Positions 34,733 through 62,999 of a DNA stretch of 64,000 nucleotides are shown piece after piece; positions within the stretch are counted from its first letter, which is position 1; each line of letters starts with the position of its first letter. The position numbers and the translations under genes were made by a program. The notes below the pieces were generated by a model, which saw only the letters and a program-made list of their open reading frames with translations, had not been told where the DNA came from and did not search any database. The stretch spans positions 97,030,001 through 97,094,000 of the forward strand of contig OX597822.1 in NCBI GenBank assembly GCA_951406725.2. The letters run 5' to 3'. This DNA comes from Octopus vulgaris. Taxonomy: Eukaryota.

Positions 34733-34786
34733 GTCATCCATTGGATAACTCCGGGGAACTGACTAAGCGTAGACTCTTCTTCCCAG
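34733..34786 (+). CDS. Candidate 54-nt cassette exon of MAST (GHPLDNSGELTKRRLFFP)
   Basis: cattttctccag acceptor, ccag|gtatat donor; symmetric phase 1-1, no stop; GC-richer than flanks. Confidence 0.5.
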
Positions 34787-35247: not shown

Positions 35248-36036
35248 AACCATACCCTCTATCATGCATACCCACACTCAAATATTCATGCATGATCAAA
35301 ATATATTCATTTCATCTATGCATTCTGGCTTAATGTTTTTATCTATCTCAACACTGGTAAACTAACCTGGGAAAATTGCATGTGAATATTTATAACTCTT
35401 AACAAGTGTTTTTGATTTCGGCAGAAGGTTACAATTTTGAGAGGTGGGTTAGTCAATACCACCAGCCTTAGTACATGAATGGTTTTTTTTATCGGTTCTG
35501 AAAGGATGAGCGGCAAAGTTAACCTCAGCAGAATTTAGGCTCAGAACCTAAAGACCCACAACAAATACTGCTCAGCAATTTTTAAAAAGTTCTATCATTT
35601 CTGCTAGTACACCATCCGTATAAAAGTCGGTCCAATGGATTCCAAAAGTCCAGCATTGTCACACATTGTATCATGCTGTTTCTACCCGAAGATTACTTTA
35701 AAGGTACTTGTGTACAGTGCTCAGGTGCACTACAACTCATCTAAAGTGTATATATAATCAGGTGTAGTTTCGGCGGATTTCGGAAAGCATGAGGGCCTTA
35801 AAGGATGCAGTGTCATGGCAGTCAACAACTGACGCAAGCAGTTTGTTCCATGCTTCAGCAACTCTGAGCGTGAAAAAATGTTTCCGAAAGTCATGGGAGC
35901 TGTGTTGTTTTCTGACTTTGTAGGCATAAAAGAACATATCTAATAAGTATTCATTACTGCACTTAATGTCTCTGTAATCTTAAGTGGCCATCTTAGTTTA
36001 AGTCATACTGTATAAGAGATTTACGAGTCCAGCATA

Positions 36037-36689
36037 TACTCTTTTACTCTTTACTCTTGTTTCAGTCATTTTGACTGCGGCCATACTGGAGCACTGCCTT
36101 TAATCGAGCAACTCGACCCCGGGACTTATTCTTTTGTAAGCCCAGTACTTATTCTATCAGTCTCTTTTGCCGAACCGCTAGGTGACGGGACGTAAACACA
36201 CCAGCATCGGTTGTCAAGCAATGCTAGGGGGACAAACACAGACACACAAACATATACACACACACACTTATATATATATATATATATATATACATATATG
36301 CGACGGCTTTTTCAGTTTCTGTCTCAAATCCACTCACAAGGCATTGGTCTTGCCCTATGTGTCATGCAGTGGGACTGAACCCGGAACCATGTGGTTGGAT
36401 AGCAAGCTCCTTACCACACAGCCACTCCTGCGCCTGTTGTGGTTTATGCCATAGCTCATAAAACTTCCTCCATTTCCTAAATGCAAATATGAGAAAATAT
36501 TTACCATATAAGGGCAAGAGTGGCAAGTAGCTTGCTTACCAGCCACATGGTTCTGGGTTCAGTCCTACTGCATAGCACCTTGGGCAAGTGTCTTCTACTA
36601 TAGCCTCGGGCCAACCAAAGCCTTGTGAGTAGATTTGGTAGACGAAAACTGAAAGAAGCCCATCATATATATGTGTGTGTATGTGTATG

Positions 36690-36725
<36 letters not shown>

Positions 36726-37468
36726 TATATATATACATAATGCTGGCCTGTTTACATCCTTGCAACATAGCGGTTTGGCAAAAGAGACCGATAGAATAAG
36801 TACTAGGCTTACAAAGAATAAGTCCTGGAGTACTTAATGTATTCACTACTGCACTTAATGTCTCTGTAATCTTAAGTGGCCATCTTAGTTTTAAGTCATA
36901 CTGTATATGAAATATTTCCATTTTTGTGATAGCAATGTTAGTCTCTATTTTGTGCATATAAAAATTATAATTTACTTTTTCATTCCTTAGACTCGTTATC
37001 AAGGTAACAGTTTGCATGTATCATTGCTGCCTTACCATGTCTCTTGATGCATGTCATCGCAGCAGCACTACTGCACAGCAGCTTTTATACTTATGGACGT
37101 GTGTCAGAAGGTGTTATTAAAATAATCTCCCTCTCTTGTCTTCTATTATTGCTGCTAAGTCACTTCAAGAGATGGCGTTAATGCTTTATAAACGAACATT
37201 GATCAATCTTTCCATTCAATTCATTATTATTGACTTTCCACTCATTCTAACTTATCTATACTCTTTTACTCTTTTACTTGTTTCAGTCATTTGACTGCGG
37301 CCATGCTGGAGCACCGCCTTTAGTCGAGCAAATCAACCCCGGGACTTATTCGTTGTAAGTCCAGTACTTATTCTATCGGTCTCTTTTGTCGAACCGCTAG
37401 TGACGGGGACGTAAACACGCCAGCATCGGTTGTCAAGCAATGCTAGAGGGACAAACACAGACACAAAA

Positions 37469-37531
<63 letters not shown>

Positions 37532-37695
37532 TACAACAGGCTTCTTTCAGTTTCCGTCTACCAAATCCACTCACAAGGCATTGGTCGGCCCGAGGCTGTA
37601 GCAGAAGACACTTGCCCAAGATGCCACGCAGTGGGACTGAACCCAGAACCATGCGGTTGGTAGGCAAGCTACTTACCACACAGCCACTCCTGCGC

Positions 37696-37697
<2 letters not shown>
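36037..37697. mobile_element. Three SINE B copies in alternating orientation (36037-36435 -, 36515-36830 +, 37260-37697 -)
   Basis: Direct comparison with the family B copies. Confidence 0.85.
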
Positions 37698-37737
<40 letters not shown>

Positions 37738-38244
37738 CCATCCTGTTTCTGATTCACTCCATCTCCTCGTAGAAATACATCAATACCTTTTCTATCCCAA
37801 CCACAACAGCAATAAAAAAGCCACCTATTTTGTCTTTATTTGATTTTATTCGTTTTATTCTCGTGTTTTTTTTTCTTTTTCTTCTTCTTCTTCATCTTCT
37901 TCTTCTTTTTTCCGCTTCAGTAGATTATAATTTACTTTTTCATTCCTTAGACTCGTTATCAAGGTAACAGTTGTGGCATTTGTTATCTTCTCTTGGCTTC
38001 TTTAACTGTTATTAAAAATAAACAAAATTAATAATTACACAGCAGCTTTTATACTTTGTATTTTTTTTGTTTTTTTTTTTTTTTTTTTCCAATTTTAATC
38101 TTTCTTATTTTTTTCTCTTTGCCGAAAATAATACAGAATCCGTTGCCTAGGCAATTCTCTTTGCATGGTACTTTATAAACGAACATTGATCAATCTTTCC
38201 ATTCAATTCATTATTATTATTGACTTTCCACTCATTCTAACTTA

Positions 38245-38352
38245 TGTGTATGTATGTATGTGTGTGTGTATATATATGTATATATATATATATATATAGA
38301 TATATAATATATAGATATATAATATAATATATAGATATATAATATAATATAT

Positions 38353-38419
<67 letters not shown>

Positions 38420-38640
38420 TATATAATATATATATAGAATATATATATAGATATAGATATATATAGATATAGATATATAATATATATATAGATATAGATA
38501 TATAATATATATATAGATATAGATATATAATATAGATATAGATATATAATATATATATATATATATATACACACACATATGTATATATACACACACATAT
38601 TTATATACACACATATATATATGCACACACACATATATAT

Positions 38641-38671
<31 letters not shown>

Positions 38672-38721
38672 CACATACACATATATAAAGTATAAACATC
38701 CATATATTTGTTTGCATATAC

Positions 38722-38755
<34 letters not shown>

Positions 38756-38760
38756 ATATA
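38245..38760. repeat. (TA)n/(CA)n/(TAGA) compound microsatellite
   Basis: Low-complexity dinucleotide tract. Confidence 0.95.
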
Positions 38761-38961
38761 TGCAAATATTATCTAACTCTTTGTCCCAACAGTTTCTTCA
38801 CTGTTTTCTGTTGTTGAACTTTTGTCAATAACACACAATTTGCAGAATATTTTCTTTCAAACAATTCCGTTTCTTAACGTGACGTCTCGTTGTGGCATTT
38901 GTTATCTTCTCTTGGCTTCTTTAACTGTTATTAAAAATAAACAAAATTAATAATTACGAAT

Positions 38962-39018
38962 GCCATCCGGGTATATCTAGGTGATACAGACCTGTACACT
39001 CTGCAACATATGGTTGTT
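38962..39018 (+). CDS. MAST: Displaced 3' half of MAST PDZ exon (AIRVYLGDTDLYTLQHMVV) with intact donor
   Basis: GCC ATC CGG GTA TAT CTA GGT GAT ACA GAC CTG TAC ACT CTG CAA CAT ATG GTT GTT|gtaagt; matches MAST PDZ AIRVY.GD.D.YT..H.V; no acceptor upstream. Confidence 0.9.
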
Positions 39019-39757
39019 GTAAGTATTATTTGCATGCCTTTGATTCTTCGTTGGTTGAAATGTGTTGCTTTAGTGTATTTTTTGTCTGGTATTGATAAAG
39101 CTGAGCTGAACTCAGAACTTGTTAATTCTTGGTCAAATAACATCATAATTTTTAATGTTATTTCATTGACATCATCTTACTGAATTACATAAATGGTCGT
39201 TTTATTCTGTCTAATATATGAATCTTTCCTACATAAAGTAAATATCACTTCGTAAATCTTTAAAATATTTTGTAATTAGTTTCATTCAAAAACAATTGTC
39301 TGAAATCAAAATTAAGGCATCTTTAATGAGATGCATTTTAACTTTTCTCTTTGATCCTTTTTTCCCTTTTTTTTTTTTTTTTTGTTCCAGTTTATGACTT
39401 AACCCTTTAGCATTTAAAGCAACCATATCCAACCCAAATATTCTATGTTCAAACAAACCAGATCTCACACATACTCTGCAATATCATTTTAAGCCTAAAC
39501 AATCCCATGATGGAAATCTCAAGGCTACAAGATAATGCAGGATTAATTAAAAACAAATCTAAATGAATAAACATTGCATTTGACAGAATAATCCGAATGC
39601 TAAAGGGTTAAAAATATATAGTATGCGTTTTTATTAGCTGTGTGTGTATGTTTTAGTCTGTGTATTATGTGCCTGTTTATGCATAACTTATAATAAATGT
39701 ATCACACTTTGTTGTCTTCATATCAATTATATCTTCTTTTTTTTTTTGATATTGCAG

Positions 39758-39921
39758 AAGATTTACTCATCCAGCCCTTAAACTCTCCTGGGGGTTCAAG
39801 CACCAGTTCCCGCGATGGCTCTCCGTCCAGAGATATCTCGCCACTTACCAGGAACTTAAAGCCGCCACTAGTCATCAAGAAAGGTCCTCAAGGGTTTGGA
39901 TTCCGTATCCAAGCCATCCGG
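39758..39921 (+). CDS. MAST: 5' half of MAST PDZ exon (EDLLIQPLNSPGGSSTSSRDGSPSRD...PPLVIKKGPQGFGFRIQAIR), fused to a LINE fragment
   Basis: attgcag acceptor; SSRD.SP.RD and GFGF PDZ carboxylate-binding loop; continues into CR1 sequence 39920-40013. Confidence 0.92.
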
Positions 39922-40351
39922 GAGCTGATGCTGTCTTCTGACTTTGTAAATATGTCCACGGGTGTTAGACGGGTGGAGTTTGAAAAGGTGCTCAGATGCT
40001 TTAGGAACATCAGAATAGATTTATCTTTTTACTTCGTGAAATGATTTGATGTTAATTCAATCAACTCTACCAAGATTATTGTCTGTAGCCATTGTAAATA
40101 TGCATACTTGGACATTTTTGAGATTAAAGTGAATGTGGTTTCACCGCACAGCTATATAAGTAATTAAAAGCTGTGTAATTAGAGATTTATTTTTCTAGTT
40201 TTGTGATTCATTTCAAAATGCTGTGTTTTCCAGCAACCCTGTTTTGTAATCCTGCTTTATCCCAATTCCATCAGCACCATCAACATGATAACAATACTTC
40301 TACATGTAAAAGGCCGAGTCACATGTCATATTTTTATTTGCTGGTTTCTGT

Positions 40352-40743
40352 GATAATAATAATAATAATAATGAAATTATTGTATACAGTGCTCAGGTGC
40401 ACCACAACTTGTCAGAAAATGCATATAAAGTACATGCAGTAATGTGAAAATGTCTGGAAAGCGAACAATGTATGAGTCAGATACATGCCTGTGTGTGTAT
40501 GGAGGGGAGAAAATCAGGTGTAGTGTTGGCGAATCTCAGAAAGCATGGAAGTTTTGAAGGATGCAGTGCTCTGACAACTAACAACTGATGCCGGCAGTTT
40601 GTTCCATGCTTCAGCAACTCTCAGCGTGAAAAAATGTTTCCTGAAGTCATGGGAGCTGTGCTGTCTTCTGACTTTGTAAATATGTCCACGGGTGTTAGAC
40701 GGGTGGAGTTTGAAAAGGTGCTCAGATGCTTTAGGAACATCAG
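40352..40743 (-). mobile_element. CR1-type LINE 3' fragment
   Basis: HLFKLHPSNTRGHIYKVRRQHSSHDFRKHFFTLRVAEAWNKLP; (ATT)n tail; 40651-40743 duplicated at 39920-40013. Confidence 0.85.
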
Positions 40744-42051
40744 TTAAAGGATGAAGTGTTCTACTGAGCAAAAGGAGGAGAGAGAGAGAATTAAAACACA
40801 GGGTTGAAAAAGGATGTGAGCGCTAAGTGTTGTTAAATAAAATGCTGAAATGGGAAACTTTTGTACTTCTAAACATTTGTGATTCATTTCAAATGCTGTG
40901 TTCTCCAGCAACCATGTTTTGTGCTTGGCTCTTCTCTACCCATACACATCTCACCCTCAACTGGAAGCTGCATCCACCTATAAGACTCTTGTCTTATTTT
41001 GTTTCTTTTAAGCATTGTGTGTTGATGCGAGACTTGACACCACTCAGTCTGTTATATTATATTGACAGCTAAGTTGCTTAACTCTTTAGCATTTAAACAT
41101 GCCAAATCCGGCCCTAATATTGTACCTGCCTTATGTTGAAACTAGTCAAATCCAGATTCTCACACTGACCTGGTTAATTGAAAACAATGTGAATAGATGA
41201 ACATTACATTTGACCGAGTAATCTGAATGCTAAAGGTTTAAGTAGGAAATGCTTTCACTTACCTGAATACTCTTATGTAGTTAAGTATGTCTCTTAAGTA
41301 TGTAAAAGCCTACCAACAACAGATTTCAGCTTTTAACTCTACCCAAATGGTGATATTTCAGTGCTTTGTTAATATAACATATTTCTGTACTTCTATGTTC
41401 ATTTTCACTTCCCTTCTCTCTCTTTCTTGTAGTAACTATTTCCCTCTATTTGATACTCGTATTCCTCATACGGCACAGCTGGGGGAGTTCACATTTCTGT
41501 TAGTCTAAACTGTTTTCGGAACCTTTCTCTTATTTTTTTTATTTCTTGGTATATTGTTTCAAAAACCACAAATTCTCTACAGATCTTCATTCTTTCTTTA
41601 CTGATCCAAGATATGTGTAGTGCATGTTCTAATCTGGCAGCCAGAGTTCAACTGTATTATGTACTTTGACCTATGAAATCGTTTTTTTTCTATCTCTGGC
41701 GAGTTAACTCGTCAAAAGATAAACTTGCCAAAATCGACAGCAAACGAGTTCCTTCGTCTATTATAAACTCTTTTTTGACATAGAAGGATCACTTGAGGGA
41801 TCCGAGATATAAGCGGTAATTTAAAATCAATATTATTGAATTAAAATTCATAATAAATAAGGTTTGAAATTTACCTCGAAATCACCATTCAAAACATAGT
41901 AAAATAAAACAATTAAAAAATATGTCTGAAAAAATACATTTATTTTCAAAATAATTGTTGGGTAAGGGGTTAAGCTCTTACAGTTGTATATATTTTTGCT
42001 AAACATTTCAATCTTTAAATAAATGTAATATTTTGATCCTTTCTGTTGCAG

Positions 42052-43002
42052 GCGGTTGAGACAAGTGGTCCTGCTTTTGAAGCTGGTTTACGTCCTGGTT
42101 GTCTGATAACTCATATCAATGATGAATGTATCCAAAGTCTATTGCACACCCAGGTTGTGCAGCTCATTCTCAGTGGTGGGAATGTCCTGCAGATCCGGTC
42201 TGTGCCGTTGGAAAACACAACCATTAAAACTGGAACGCGAAGGCATCGAAGCAATCCTGGGAAAATGGCACGTCGTATTTGTCACAAGAAACGAGAGAAA
42301 AGTGGTGAGAAGAAGAAAGGACGGTCATTGTTCCGAAAATTGAGTAAGAAGGCTGAGCAACATATACACCCTGGCTCACCAATGAGCGCCAACAGAACAT
42401 TCAGTCCTCTCAGCAAGTCTCTGTCTTCAGCTGAAAGTTCACCAAACTTGCCGAGGTCTGCTCGTTCTCTACCAATCAATATGCCATGGTCAACACCAGA
42501 GTCCGCTGCTGGAAGTTCTTCTACCAGTAGCTCACCCAGCTCTAGCGGGCCAAGTTCCCCAGCCACTTCCTCCCACTATGGCCGGCCTAGCTCCTTGCAT
42601 GGCCTGAAACACCACAAACGTGCTCAGAGTATGAAATCCCCCCATCGGCGTAAATCTGTGCACAACATTCCCCTCTCACCTTTAGCAAGGACTCCTTCCC
42701 CATCTCCAATGGCAACATCTCCAACACGGAGCCCCAGCCCACTTGCTTTCACGCAGGGACATCATGCTGGCAGTTCTAACACAGTACAGCACACATACCC
42801 AGCTCAACTTACTGCTTCCGGTTCTCCTGTACCCCACACAGCCTCACGCAGATCTTTCACAAGGCCCAAAAGCTGTGAGCCTGGGTCACCTCTGTTGCGA
42901 TGTACACTATCTCCAGAACGACTGCATCCCAACACAGCAGAGAAGACTCATCTCAGGAAAAGTCCTTGGCAGGAGAAACAGTCAGTCAGTGAATCTTTGT
43001 GA
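42052..43002 (+). CDS. MAST: MAST terminal coding exon: PDZ C-half + Ser/Pro-rich tail (AVETSGPAFEAGLRPG...RPSSLHGL...RRKSVHNIPLSPLARTPSP...RPKSCEPGSPLL...SESL*)
   Basis: ttgcag acceptor; 317 codons including TGA; conserved MAST motifs. Confidence 0.96.
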   Translation, partial: AVETSGPAFEAGLRPGCLITHINDECIQSLLHTQVVQLILSGGNVLQIRSVPLENTTIKTGTRRHRSNPGKMARRICHKKREKSGEKKKGRSLFRKLSKKAEQHIHPGSPMSANRTFSPLSKSLSSAESSPNLPRSARSLPINMPWSTPESAAGSSSTSSSPSSSGPSSPATSSHYGRPSSLHGLKHHKRAQSMKSPHRRKSVHNIPLSPLARTPSPSPMATSPTRSPSPLAFTQGHHAGSSNTVQHTYPAQLTASGSPVPHTASRRSFTRPKSCEPGSPLLRCTLSPERLHPNTAEKTHLRKSPWQEKQSVSESL

Positions 43003-45827
43003 GAATGGAGGATTAATTCACTGCTGCTTCCCCTTGCACCGTTCACATGTAAGTGAAAACTTGCTCCCATCATAGCATGATGCTGTTGTTTGAAGGGATG
43101 TATATAGTAATTTAGAAAGTTTTCTCGACTCAAGAATCAAAGATTTAAAAAGGAGAAAGACTAACACAACCACAAAGCTTTAAATATGAATTGAAGAAAA
43201 ATATATAAATTATATAAACTGATGATAACATTTTCCAAACCCTCACCCCATCCTAAACAAGAAATGTGATTAAAAAAATGTCCCACTCCTCACTAAAAAC
43301 AGAGCTCAAAAAAAAAAAACAAAAAAACGATTTATTGGAAATTACAATACCCACAATGAATAGCGTTTCAACTCCACTAAAATATTATAAAAGGAATAAG
43401 TTGAAGAAGAAAAAAAACAAAAAACAAAAGACAAAATTATTTCTCATGAGACCAACTTTGACTTTTTAATATTATCCTTCAGTATTTGAGTTGTATTTAA
43501 ATTTTTTTTTTTTTTTTCCAATTATTCTCTTCTCTGACTCTAAATAATGTTTTTCTTCTGTTATTCTCATTAACAATTTTTTTTTTTTCTTCAAAATTTT
43601 AACACCCTCTCCAATACCACCATATTTTGTGTTTCATTCAGTGATTATTTATTTTTTATTTCCCTCCTTTTTTTTTTTTTTTTGTTATTCTCTGACCAAC
43701 TATTTTCTAACATCTCCCCCCCTGCTACATGCAACACCAAAACAACTCACCCCCTACCACCACCACCACTTCCACCAAGCATAACATTTCATATTTGGTT
43801 AACTTCAGCTGTTGTCTGTCCATTCTGTCAAGTGGTTGTGATATTTTGCTAGCGATAGATCCCACACATACATGATGTACAGAGTGCAGTTTTGAAAACG
43901 CCAACTTGCCCTAATCTTTCATGTCAGTATTTCTGTCGATTTGTGTTACATTTTACCTGTAAGATTGTGCATTTAAACTGTTTTCTTTTCTAATTTCTTT
44001 CCCCTCTTCTTTCTTGTCAAACTTAATGAAATTCTACAGCCACAGTGAATTATAAATATCAATTAATCTCAGTACTAACTCAACTTATGCCCAGATATCT
44101 GGTTTTATTCTGCATCAGCCATTGACTCACTATTTTGGTCAATGAAATTTGTGCTGTTGTCTCTCTTATTTTATTTTTTTTTTTTTTCAATTTATATTTT
44201 TCCCCACGGGGCTTTTGTTGAGAAATTATCATTGTTGGGTCAATTATTTCAGTGTCTATCATCAGTCAGTAATCTCAGAAATATTTCTGTCTGAGATATA
44301 AAAAAAAAACAGAAATGATCTAGAACTTTCCTATGATTAGTAGGACAATGTGTTTGGCAGAAAGATACCTATTCTAGTTTTTGGAATGAAGAATTTCATG
44401 ACAACTGCCATCGCTTGTATCAAATAGTTGTTTTTTTTCTTTTCTTTTTCTACACAGAAATATTTAATTCCATCTTAGAAAATGCTGTGTCTGGTATATT
44501 TATAAAACAGTAAAACTTGGCATATTTTCTCTAAAATTTCCATAGCCTAGGACCGTGGTACCGAGTGTATTTTTATTGTCTTTTAACACTTATCAACTGT
44601 TTGACATCTCTCCGTGTGTGTCTGTTGTGTAAATTGTAGCCGCTTTGAGATAGTACTTTAACTGAGAGACATGTTCGACACAGCAATGTGTTAGTTGAAG
44701 TTGGTCAAATTGCTTCCTTGCAAGTCTGCAACCGTAACAATACTAGTCTACCTAGAAAGGCAATCCCTGTGATATATATATATATATGAAAAAAAAACAA
44801 AACAAAAACAAAAAAAAGATTTAAAAAAAGCGAAAAATGTAAAAAGAAAAAAAGAAAGATTAAAAAAAAGTGACTTAGAGTCGTCTTCTTTAAACTTTTT
44901 TCTTCTTTCCTTTCATTGACAAAACTGGTGTTTTATCAGTTCCTATGGAAATTCTTTCTAATTTTAAATCTTTTAATTTTTGGCCCTTGTTGCCTCCCGT
45001 TTCCTTTCACTTTCCCCAAACCCATATCTCTTCTTGTCATTGTATATACAACATTTTTCACCCCCCCTACAAACACCACATATGCTTATTCTTCTTTATC
45101 CATCCCTCACTTTCCAACTTTTGACTTGATTGAAGGTCAACTTTTTTTAAGGCTGTGTGCTTTGTCTAGTCCCCCCACCCCCAATTTATATTTCTTGGTG
45201 ACAAACAAAGGTGAATGATATGGGATTTTTTTGTTTGTTTGTTTGTTTTGTTTTTTTTTTACCTTCCTTTAAATCAATTACATATTCATTCATTATAAAT
45301 TATATTCTCATTTAATGTTTTCTTTTCCAAAAAAAAAAAAGCAAGATAAAGTAAAATGTATTATATTGCTCTGATGGTTTGAAACTACACACTCATGCGT
45401 GCACGCACAAACATACACACAATTTAATCCGCCTAGTATGAAGATAACCAAACAAGTTACCGTTGTTAATGAAAGAATTTAAGCAGATGACAAACTAACA
45501 GCCAACATGGTGACTAAAACAGTACTGGTTTTGTTCCTTTTTCAATTTTCAATGTGATTTTGGATTCCTTTTTTTTTTTTTTTTTTTTTTAAAGTATCTG
45601 AATATGAAATGAGCAGTGAAACTACTTGAATTTGGAAATCTTTCATTCCCATGTTGACAAACCTACTTTTTTTTTTTTTTTTAGTTCATTTTATTTTATT
45701 TTATCTTGAACGACACCGCCCCAAACCTCTGCTCTAGCCTGCCATAACAATGATGCATTCATCACCAATTGAATTATGGTTTAAAAAAAAATTAAACAGC
45801 AGCCTACGTCAGATGTTTCTCATTTAT

Positions 45828-58396: not shown

Positions 58397-61170
58397 ATTC
58401 GGTGTGTGACACACTAATTGTACATATAAGGCAACTTGGTGTAGTTATATGTGCTACATATCACCCTCCAGATGCCCCAAGCCATGTAGGCAAGTTTGAA
58501 GACTGCCTTATAAAAATAGAAAAAGTTCTATGTCACATTAAAACAACACATAAGTGTACTTCTTATGGGAGACTTCAATCTGCCCAATGTCAGATGGCCC
58601 GAGGGTCTTTCTCTCCCAGGAATGACACGATGCGAATGAGGACAGGCGAGGTCCCTCCTGAACCTCATCAACACTCTGTACATGGAGCAAATAATACTCT
58701 AACCAACCAGGGCAGGTAACATACTGGATCTCTGCTTCACAAATAATATGGATCTCATCCATAATGTGAAAGTGACACCGACACTACTCTCGGATCACAA
58801 CATGGTAGAGCTGACCATGTATGGGCCAAAGGAAAGCATGGACATGCAGCCTACAAGAAACTCTCAGAATCTTTCCAGCTTGAACTTCCATAAGGCAAAC
58901 TGGAAACAAATTGAGAAAGAGATCCTCATACAAAACTGGCCTGAATGTCTCGCCTTGCCAGACATCGACATGAAACTTCAACAATTCATGTCTGTAATGC
59001 AAGCCATATGCTACAAATGTGTCCCAGAGAGAAAGGCCACTGTACACAAGAACAAAATCCCCAGAGAGAGGAAAATTCTAATGAGACGGCGTACAAAGGT
59101 TTCAAATCGCTTAAACAAACAAATTGAAAGCAGTGAAAAGTCCCGCCGCCTGAAAATAAAACTGTTGGAAATTGAAAAATGTCTGCAACTCTCCCATGAA
59201 AAAGAAAGAGCAGACAAAGGAGCCTGGGCTATAGACAACATAAAAACTAACCCCAGAGCTTTCTACAGGTATGCCAAAGAAACAGCTACGGTGCACTGTA
59301 GGATAGGGCCACTCCTTGAAAAGGATGGCATACTCACAGGAAAACCAATGAGGGTAAGTGAAATACTGAATGAGCAATTCAAGAGTGTTTTCACTCCACC
59401 CCTTGGGCATTTCCAAATCACCAATCCAACTGACTTCTTTACCACTGCAGATATAAAATCAGAGGCAGCGATGATCGATTACATCAATATAAAGGAAGAC
59501 GATGTAATAAAGGCTATAGATGAAATGAAAACAAACTCAGCTACTGGCCCGGATGGATTCCCAGCAATTCTTCTAAAAGTATGCAAGAGTCCTAGCAAGA
59601 CCACTGCAGTTCCTCTTTCAGAGCTTCCTTGCAACTGGAAAACTTCCAAGAAAACTGAAGGAAGGTAAAATATGCCCTATTCATAAAGGAGGTAGCAGAG
59701 CGGAGGCCAAGAATTACAGACCTATCTCTCTGACCTCACACATCAGCAAGGTCATGGAACGAATAGTCAGAAGGAAACTAATCACCTTCCTTGAAGAAAA
59801 TGACTTGCTGCCTGACACCCAACATGGTTTCCGACCAGGAAGAAGCTGCCTAACTCAGCTCCTACAACACTATGACTGGGTGCTGAAATGATTGCTTAAC
59901 CCCGCAAATGTGAAAGTGATATATCTCGACTTTGCAAAGGCCTTTGATAAAGTCAATCATGGAATGATATGTCACAAACCGCGTGACCTTGGCATAGTTG
60001 GAAAATTGGGAGAATGGCTTCATGACTCTCTGAAGGATAGAAGTCAGGTGGTAGTAGCCAATGGGGCCACCTCCAATAACATGCAAATAGTGAGCGGTGT
60101 TCCGCAAGGCACTGTTTTGGGACCACTACTGTTCATAATGGCCCTCTCAGACATGCCCTCAGCCACGATCACAGGTTATGCAGATGATACAAAAGTTTCA
60201 CAGGCAATATGGAACCCTGAAGACACTATGCACCTGCAATGTGAGCTGGATAAAATATACAAGTGGGCTGAAAAGAATAGCATGCAGTTCAATGCTGAAA
60301 AGTTTCAAGCTTTATGCTATCAGCATGCAAAACTAAATGCAATACCCAATAAATACACGGGACCTGGAGGGATTGCAATCCCAGCGGCACAATCAGTGCG
60401 AGACCTGGGTATTTACATGAGTGATGATGCAACCTTTCATGTGCATGTTGCTAAATTGGCAATGAAATGTAGGCGACTGACCAGATGGATTCTTAGAGCT
60501 TTTAGAATAAGAGACCAGGAAACCATGATGGTCCTCTGGAGGACACTTATCCTAAGCCACTTTGACTATTGCTCTTAGCTATGGTCACCATCCAGTGTCA
60601 AGTTAATCACAGAACTTGAGGTGATCCAACGAAGCTACACGAAGAAGATAGCCTCTGTGCAGCATATAAGCTACTGGGAAAGACTCAAGAGATTAAGACT
60701 CTATTTCTTAGAGCATAGGCGAGAAAGATATGCCATAATATACATCTGGAAGATCCTAGAAGGACTTGTCCCAAACTTTGGCATTGAGAGTTACACAAAT
60801 ACTAGAACTGGGCACCACTGCATGGTGCCAAGGACTCCAAATTTGCCATCAAGATGTAGGACAAGATACTGTGATAACCTGGGCTTCAGAGGCCCACAGC
60901 TCTTCAATATCCTCCCGAAGAACCTGAGAGACCTGCATGGGGTGGATGCAGATGTCTTTAAAATAAAACTGGATCTCTTCCTGTCAGGTGTCCCAGATGA
61001 ACCAACTTCACAGCAGGAGGTGCAGATGAGGGCAGCTGCATTGAATTTTCTCATGCACCAAATGGCAATTGCTAAAAAGCATTCGTGAAGTAAAATCATG
61101 TAGCAACACCAAATGGCGGTGCCCCAGCATGGCCACAGCTCGTGAGCTGAAACTAGATAAAATAGAATAA
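58397..61170 (+). mobile_element. CR1/L2-group LINE ORF2 (APE C-part + RT), frameshifted with stops
   Basis: YHPP, GDFN, NILDL, SDH endonuclease motifs; GPDG, YRPISLTS, QHGFR, YLDFAKAFDKV, GVPQGTVLGPLLF, YADD; 3' UTR ggcggtgccccagcatggcc. Confidence 0.95.
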
Positions 61171-61243
61171 AACACACATATATATATATATACACATACA
61201 TACATACTTACATATACATACATATATGTATATATATAAATCC

Positions 61244-62975
61244 TTAAAATTGTTTCAGCTCGAAGGCTGTGACCATGCTGGAGCACCACCACTGAATCGA
61301 TGCTTCTGCCCGTATCTGTGTCTCCTGCCGAGAGGTAGGTTCATCTGGGACCCCCAACAAGAAGAGATCCAGTTTAGTTTTAAAGAAACCCACATCCACA
61401 CCATGCAAGTCTCTCAGGCATTTAGGGAGGATGTTGAAGAGCTGTGGTCCTCTGAAACCCAAGCTGTTGCAGTATCTGGACCTGTATTTTGATGGTGATG
61501 TTGGAATCCTTGGCACCATGCAGTGGCGCCCCGTTCTGCAGTTGGGGTAACTTTGAATACCAAAGTTTGGGACAAGACCCTCCAGGATTTTCCAGATGTA
61601 TATCACCACATATCTCTCCGGCCTTCGCTCTAGGGAGAAGAGTTTTAATACTTTCAGTCTTTCCCAGTAGCTGATATGTTGCATTGAGACGATCTTCTTA
61701 GTGTAGCTTCTTTGAATCGCTTTGAGTTCTGCTGTTAGCTTTATATTGTGTGGCGACCAAAGTTGGGAGCAGTAGTCCAAGCGGCTGAGGACGAAAGTTT
61801 TCCACAGGACCATCAGTGTCTCCTTCTCTCTTGTTCTGAAAGTTCGGAGAATCCATCCAGCTAGCCGTCTGCATTTTATCACCAGATTAGTAATATGCAC
61901 TTGGAAAGATGCATCATTGCTCATGTCAATGCCCAGGTCACGCACTGATTTTGACTCAGGAATTACAATTTTTCCGGGGCCAGTGTATCCAGTCTGCATG
62001 TTGTTTACCTTTGTGTGCCAGTAGTACAGGGCCTGGAACTTACCTGCATTAAACTGCATGTTGTTGTCCGCAGCCCACCTGTATATTGTATCCAACTCCT
62101 GTTGAAGATGTGCAATATTTCCAGGGTTTTGTATTGTGTGGGAGACTTTTGTGTCCTCTGCATAGCTAGCAAGGGTGGCCATCTTAGCAACTGAGAGCAT
62201 GTCTGAAAGGGCCACTATGAACAGCAGTGGCCCCAAGACAGTGCCCTGTGGAACACTGCTTGTTATTTGTGTTTCCTTGGAGGTGGCTCCATTGGTCACA
62301 ACTGCCTGCCTTCTATCTTTTAGGAAGTTGTGCAGCCACTCTCCAAGTTTTCCGCCCATGCCAAGACCACGCAGTTTGTAACAAATCAAACCGTAGTCGA
62401 CTTTATCAAAGGCTTTTGCAAAGTCGAGATATATCACATCCACATTTGAGCCATTTAGTAGCTGTTTTAACACCCAGTCATAGTGTTGCAGGAGCTGTGT
62501 TAGGCAGCTTCTACCTGGTCGAAATCCATGCTGGGTATCAGTCAGCAAGTCATTTTCTTCAAGGAACATGATTAGTTTCTTGCGGACTATTCGTTCCATG
62601 ACTTTGCTGATGTGTGAGGTCAGAGAGATAGGCCTATAATTTTTAGGTTCTGCTCTGCTTCCTCCCTTATGGATAGGGCATATTACCCCCTCTTTCAATT
62701 TGACTGGGAGCTTACCACTTGCAAGAAAGCTCTGAAAAAGAAGCTGTAGCAGTTTTGCAAGGACTTGTTTGCACAATTTGAGAAGGATCACTGGAAATCC
62801 ATCAGGTCCAGCAGCTGAGTTTGTGTCAATCTCATCTATGGTGATGTACTCAATTTTTGCCTCTTTACCCACAGGTAAAGTGGCAAAGAATTCTTCTGGG
62901 TTGTTTACTTGCCAGTGTCCTAGAGGTGTAGTGAACACACTTTGGAACTGGTCGTTCAGTATTTCACTTATCCTC
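61244..62975 (-). mobile_element. Related CR1/L2-group LINE RT (564-aa open frame, 5'-truncated)
   Basis: GPDGFP, NYRPISLTSH, QHGFRPGRSC, YLDFAKAFDKV, VPQGTVLGPLLF; YAED in place of YADD. Confidence 0.95.
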
Positions 62976-62999
62976 GTGGGGGTTTCCTATGAGGTAGCC

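Follow-up and report, generated by a model that had tools for sequence, protein, structure and literature searches.

In the window analysed here, a 64,000-nucleotide stretch of Octopus vulgaris DNA, an exon of a MAST kinase gene which encodes the start of the PDZ domain is assembled as two halves in reversed genomic order. This exon split is almost certainly not a real feature. It is very probably a consensus artefact; in the favoured model, reads from two haplotypes were forced into alignment with a displacement of ~0.7-1 kb, and the consensus alternated between them. Support for an artefact is good, and for its exact route moderate. The gene itself is a cephalopod MAST kinase of the usual kind (DUF1908, kinase, PDZ), and its 212-nt exon is intact.

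The swapped halves had been described in an earlier note on this DNA, and recomputation from the sequence found them where that note had placed them. The 10-mer GCCATCCGGG occurs at both 38962-38971 and 39913-39922 (951 nt apart), the 5′ half keeps a polypyrimidine/CAG acceptor ending at 39757 and the 3′ half (38962-39018) has a GTAAGT donor starting at 39019. As had been noticed, the 3′ half is without an acceptor, there being no AG in 38880-38971 and the sole AG of 38880-38985 lying at 38979, inside the exon piece. Together the two halves make 212 nt and keep the reading frame of the 42052 exon, neither half shows decay (tblastn and sequence check), and read-through of the assembled 5′ half stops at 40042-40044. 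The near-copy reported after the 5′ half was also recovered, 39920-40013 aligning to 40651-40743 with one inserted base and 85 nt exact. The earlier note overlooked that this 94-nt copy belongs to a larger set of offset duplicates (35955, 36964, 37074, 37184, 37223, 37970, 39929 and 40200).

By tblastn, MAST proteins of the cuttlefish cluster match ~24 exons ordered from 1887 to 42999, the displaced exon half being the sole piece out of order. The exons of a Logan cluster member (P0126), in which Pfam PF08926 (DUF1908) is followed by PF00069 (AGC-type kinase), likewise lie in order on the window, with identity mostly 80-100% (tblastn); PDZ matches at P0126 residues 983-1062 and in the last exon are both under Pfam's curated cut-off. 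The closest named protein to the last exon is from cuttlefish, with 92% identity over that exon. In all ten cephalopod cluster proteins covering the region, the exon halves are contiguous (12 were compared, the two shortest fragments giving no region). Compared with MAST kinases from cuttlefish (P0001/P0122) and the Logan cluster (P0126), the DUF1908-kinase-PDZ order and every exon agree, including a 54-nt alternative exon, and no difference is left once the artefact is discounted. A tandem (NAGNAG-type) acceptor is present at 39755-39760, and the first residue of the exon is missing in the cuttlefish-cluster proteins P0124 and P0129. A literature search returned no paper treating MAST kinase, PDZ and cephalopod together.

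Self-comparison of the window revealed exact duplicates of otherwise unique DNA from 35955 to 40893, at offsets of 892, 960, 964, 987, 990, 919, 730 and 676. Over the 64 kb, 31 exact matches of at least 16 nt were found at an offset of 300-2000; six of them reach at least 30 nt, all six in 35.9-40.8 kb, and many of the shorter matches (<30 nt) are pieces of multi-copy repeats. This cluster of duplicates pointed to one sequence present as two tracks at an offset, a prediction which was set before the comparison with contigs described below. In 38.9-40.3 kb, three patches hold, in place of the true sequence, letters that belong 675-950 nt further downstream (Table 1). The duplicates further upstream follow the same pattern as these three contig-checked patches and are listed as candidates. 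The part of the window from 35.9 to 40.3 kb is a consensus mosaic, the upstream share of this part being a candidate only.

Table 1. Coordinates of the MAST exons, patches, candidate duplicates and LINE fragment (positions in the window).
Feature	Position	Strand	Evidence and remarks
Alternative exon (54 nt, phase 1-to-1) spliced onto the exon at 39758	34733..34786	+	cuttlefish isoform P0122; X8 loose end before 39755 matches
Candidate upstream patches (zone), offsets 892-990	35941..38245	+	same pattern as the contig-checked patches, judged from sequence
Candidate upstream duplicate	35955-36014/36847-36907	+	self-comparison
Candidate upstream duplicate	36964-37012/37924-37972	+	self-comparison
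Candidate upstream duplicate	37074-37092/38038-38056	+	self-comparison
Candidate upstream duplicate	37184-37255/38171-38245	+	self-comparison
Candidate upstream duplicate	37970-38038/38889-38957	+	self-comparison
Patch 1: displaced exon end (38962-39018), donor, ~120 nt of next intron	38958..39150 (right edge approximate)	+	replaces ~190 nt of real upstream intron; X3 record 15, X1 records 1 and 2
MAST exon 5′ part, 165 of 212 nt, phase 1-to-0, linker and PDZ start	39758..39922	+	true place; tblastn; X1, X2 and X3 contigs join upstream intron
Patch 2: LINE end and unique flank copied from 40654-40743, offset 730	39923..40005	+	stands in for ~148 nt, from exon end through donor into the intron; X1 and X3 contigs
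Patch 3: copy of 40876-40922, offset about 675-676	40200..40247	+	3/3 DNA runs differ
Truncated LINE fragment (presumably CR1-like), end copied into patch 2	40352..40727	-	reading frame 40514-40822; loose ends at 40726
Last MAST coding exon, remaining PDZ and C-terminal tail	42052..43002	+	tblastn; Pfam; X8 record 21 spanning 42052-42976

Two observations concern the upstream duplicates. The most upstream one (~80 nt; 35941-36020 and 36835-36913) flanks a pair of oppositely oriented SINE-like copies; it may be the mark of a heterozygous indel from which the misalignment arose, or a real duplication. A 13-nt microexon-like stretch (36991-37003, with a copy at 37951-37963) is bounded by a pyrimidine-rich AG and by GTAACA; its use would cause a frameshift, and it is absent from all cluster proteins covering the region.

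Contigs of four public runs, each from a different study (24 runs were listed, none of them on record as RNA), were compared with 38780-43100. Three runs (X1, X2 and X3) are probable DNA and one (X8) is probable RNA, a contig of which skips 39019-42051 as a spliced form would. The data are the listed rows of Logan contigs, and the runs may come from animals other than the assembled one. In the main contig of all four runs, the match to the window ends at 39912, and among the contigs listed three of the four runs (X3, X1 and X8) give the intact exon. A single X3 contig (record 15) runs through 39587-39912, 38962-39138, 40006-40343 and 40725-41108, that is, the intact exon and then the true intron, with 11 other letters and 19 gaps on 38962-39138; its joint from 39912 to 38962 is read from the piece table of this record, the 15 listed joints not including it. 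The X1 path, pieced together across two tables, agrees with X3, record 2 having 159 letters between 39912 and 40006 (158 in X3); the same X1 contig (depth 47.8) is also placed with gaps on 39041-39107. In the probable RNA run, X8 record 21 has exactly 57 letters from 39912 to 42052, the length of 38962-39018. X8 depth in bin 38925-39069 (20.7) equals 52.7 x 57/145 and is fully accounted for by this record, record 15 on its own explains X3 depth in the same bin (9.18), and in 38780-38924 neither X2 nor X3 has any depth. X2 record 7 continues for 71 further letters past 39912, without placement among the rows listed, and X2 is consistent with the intact exon. A PDZ domain after the kinase, encoded contiguously, is hence found in the X3 and X1 DNA contigs and in the X8 contig.

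On the upstream side, contigs of X1, X2 and X3 are continuous from the intron into the 5′ part of the exon (39583/39587-39912). The intron itself is given by X1 record 1, which starts at 38780, has ~190 poorly fitting letters and then matches 39155-39352 without difference; its placement on 38780-39091, which spans the upstream junction at the cost of 23 other letters and 16 gaps, is read as a forced extension. The last ~100 nt of patch 1 carry extra letters, with gaps in X1 record 2 at 39041-39107, and past this patch the contigs resume, X1 record 1 exactly at 39155 and X3 record 16 at 39144. At patch 3, all three DNA runs disagree with the window at many sites in 40206-40244. None of the listed contigs of the four runs (three DNA and X8, the individual not being matched) carries the assembled junctions cleanly, and the ordinary form is present in their place. 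These contigs thus back misassembly or haplotype collapse, which had been the first choice of the earlier note.

The following mechanism is proposed. The displaced track would be the second haplotype of the assembled animal, since the two mismatches of patch 3 correspond to alternative alleles at 40903 and 40914, both seen in X1 and X3 (two sites only). Reads of this haplotype would have been force-aligned out of register, probably between two putative, roughly compensating heterozygous indels, so that the offset drifts (951, ~795 and ~740 nt, 65 lost bases being counted). The consensus path would change track at short shared words, such as GGG at 39920-39922 and AACATCAG at 40006-40013. The exon end would have been overwritten in its true place, leaving a surviving copy ~950 nt upstream. 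Scattered extra letters at 39041-39107 resemble two sequences interleaved base by base.

Collapsed haplotypes have been described, in the portion of the source available, to give a mosaic consensus which matches neither allele and breaks coding sequence, polishing placing reads wrongly (PMC7545148). The window is similar in that one sequence represents neither allele, coding is broken and reads would be wrongly positioned. However, the cases in that portion are frameshifts and wrong repeat copies, whereas here alleles ~0.7-1 kb off register would have led to a reordered half-exon and short offset duplicates. Titles and abstract openings of the literature on polishing errors and octopus misassembly contain no description of such an out-of-register pattern.

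A toy simulation, consisting of a simple windowed partial-order consensus and unit-cost alignment, supports plausibility only. Unrelated intron DNA here differs by ~0.52 edits per base, so that where compensating 950/700-nt indels lie up to 2 kb apart, unit-cost alignment slips out of register between them; in the 2-kb case the offset drifts from 944 to 725. From 2.5 kb up, the alignment stays in register, and the candidate zone spans 4.3 kb. The partial-order consensus produced offset duplicates, with mostly falling offsets, in five of eight two-haplotype 2-kb runs (the three without them being the 8:8 low-error ones), in none of four single-haplotype controls and in none of five runs with a 3-kb span. 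Simulated duplicates measured 15-24 nt vs 33-85 nt observed, and the fit of the simulation is partial.

This shortfall in length, along with the lack of simulated duplicates at 3 kb, leaves room for another artefact route, namely gap filling, a merge between two contigs or haplotigs that overlap, or successive rounds of short-read polishing on a backbone misplaced near a (TA)n array. Such an array, a ~530-nt microsatellite at 38243-38770, does lie within the zone. However, a single merge would give one junction instead of repeated alternation, and the offsets drift as in forced alignment. This route is a possible variant of the best explanation, to which we give the smaller share of our confidence in an artefact, and its biological conclusion is identical.

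A very improbable alternative is a genuine allele, carried by the assembled animal only and encoding a MAST kinase without a complete PDZ domain, which would have been formed by serial inter-homologue template switching (FoSTeS/MMBIR-like) at a near-constant offset of ~0.7-1 kb. The runs compared may differ from the assembled animal, and complex microhomology rearrangements have been reported: in the excerpts available, FoSTeS/MMBIR products combine discontinuous duplications with deletions and share short words at their junctions (PMC2621351, PMC9199198), and the window also shows such duplications and deletions. Words of 1-8 nt are shared at several patch edges, the putative switch points, but they are also expected where consensus paths merge, and the upstream edge (38958-38961) matches neither track. 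At least six switches would be needed for the three contig-checked patches, and more with the upstream ones, all in one direction, with a smoothly drifting offset and almost conserved total length. Furthermore, bases are interleaved at 39041-39107, both exon halves are undecayed, and junctions in genomic molecules, which template switching predicts, were not carried cleanly by any listed contig of the three DNA runs (individual not matched). Unlike the FoSTeS/MMBIR cases in those excerpts, no junction is supported by any listed contig, and an offset that hardly changes, a length that is conserved and bases that interleave suggest alignment rather than replication. If it were true, this private allele would swap the PDZ exon halves and the kinase read-through frame would end at 40044.

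Excision and reintegration of a circle, by which 38962-39922 would be rotated true DNA bounded by a 10-nt duplication, had been offered in the earlier note as a route to a PDZ-less allele and can be set aside: the same 10-mer does stand at both ends of this 961-nt segment, but two facts contradict the model, the loss of content (at 38958-39154, ~190 nt of intron given by X1 record 1 are missing) and the nature of the 10-mer, which had been taken for junction microhomology but is plain exon sequence present by chance in both patches. In addition, 39155-39912 is in native order (X1 records 1 and 2; X3 record 16; X8 record 20), the base after 39922 belongs to a foreign patch from 730 nt downstream and is not the true next base, and patch 3 and the upstream duplicates are left unexplained.

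Two further readings were rejected. Patch 2 is not an independent LINE insertion, as the copy reaches 17 nt past the element end (40726-40727) into unique flank, and the 10-mer is not a target-site duplication, since in the intact contigs it lies inside the exon. The LINE fragment, called CR1 in the earlier note and presumably CR1-like from the look of its reading frame, gave no Pfam match for its family, and multi-copy depth was seen in the run contigs. It is absent from the X3 contig (40343, 8 letters, 40725) and its right end is crossed by an X2 contig, a presence/absence difference between runs; X3 is labelled as a different organism. Long reverse-transcriptase-like frames, presumably also of LINE origin, lie at 58703-62986, fragmented on the + strand (58703-61088) and 580 aa long on the - strand (61244-62986).

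Clustered exact duplicates of unique DNA, 30-90 nt long and at a drifting, near-constant offset, offer a cheap screen for out-of-register mosaics. Gene models derived from this assembly lose or truncate the PDZ domain and need correction from transcripts. The exon split being an artefact of the consensus, it carries no biological weight, and the octopus gene is an ordinary MAST kinase.
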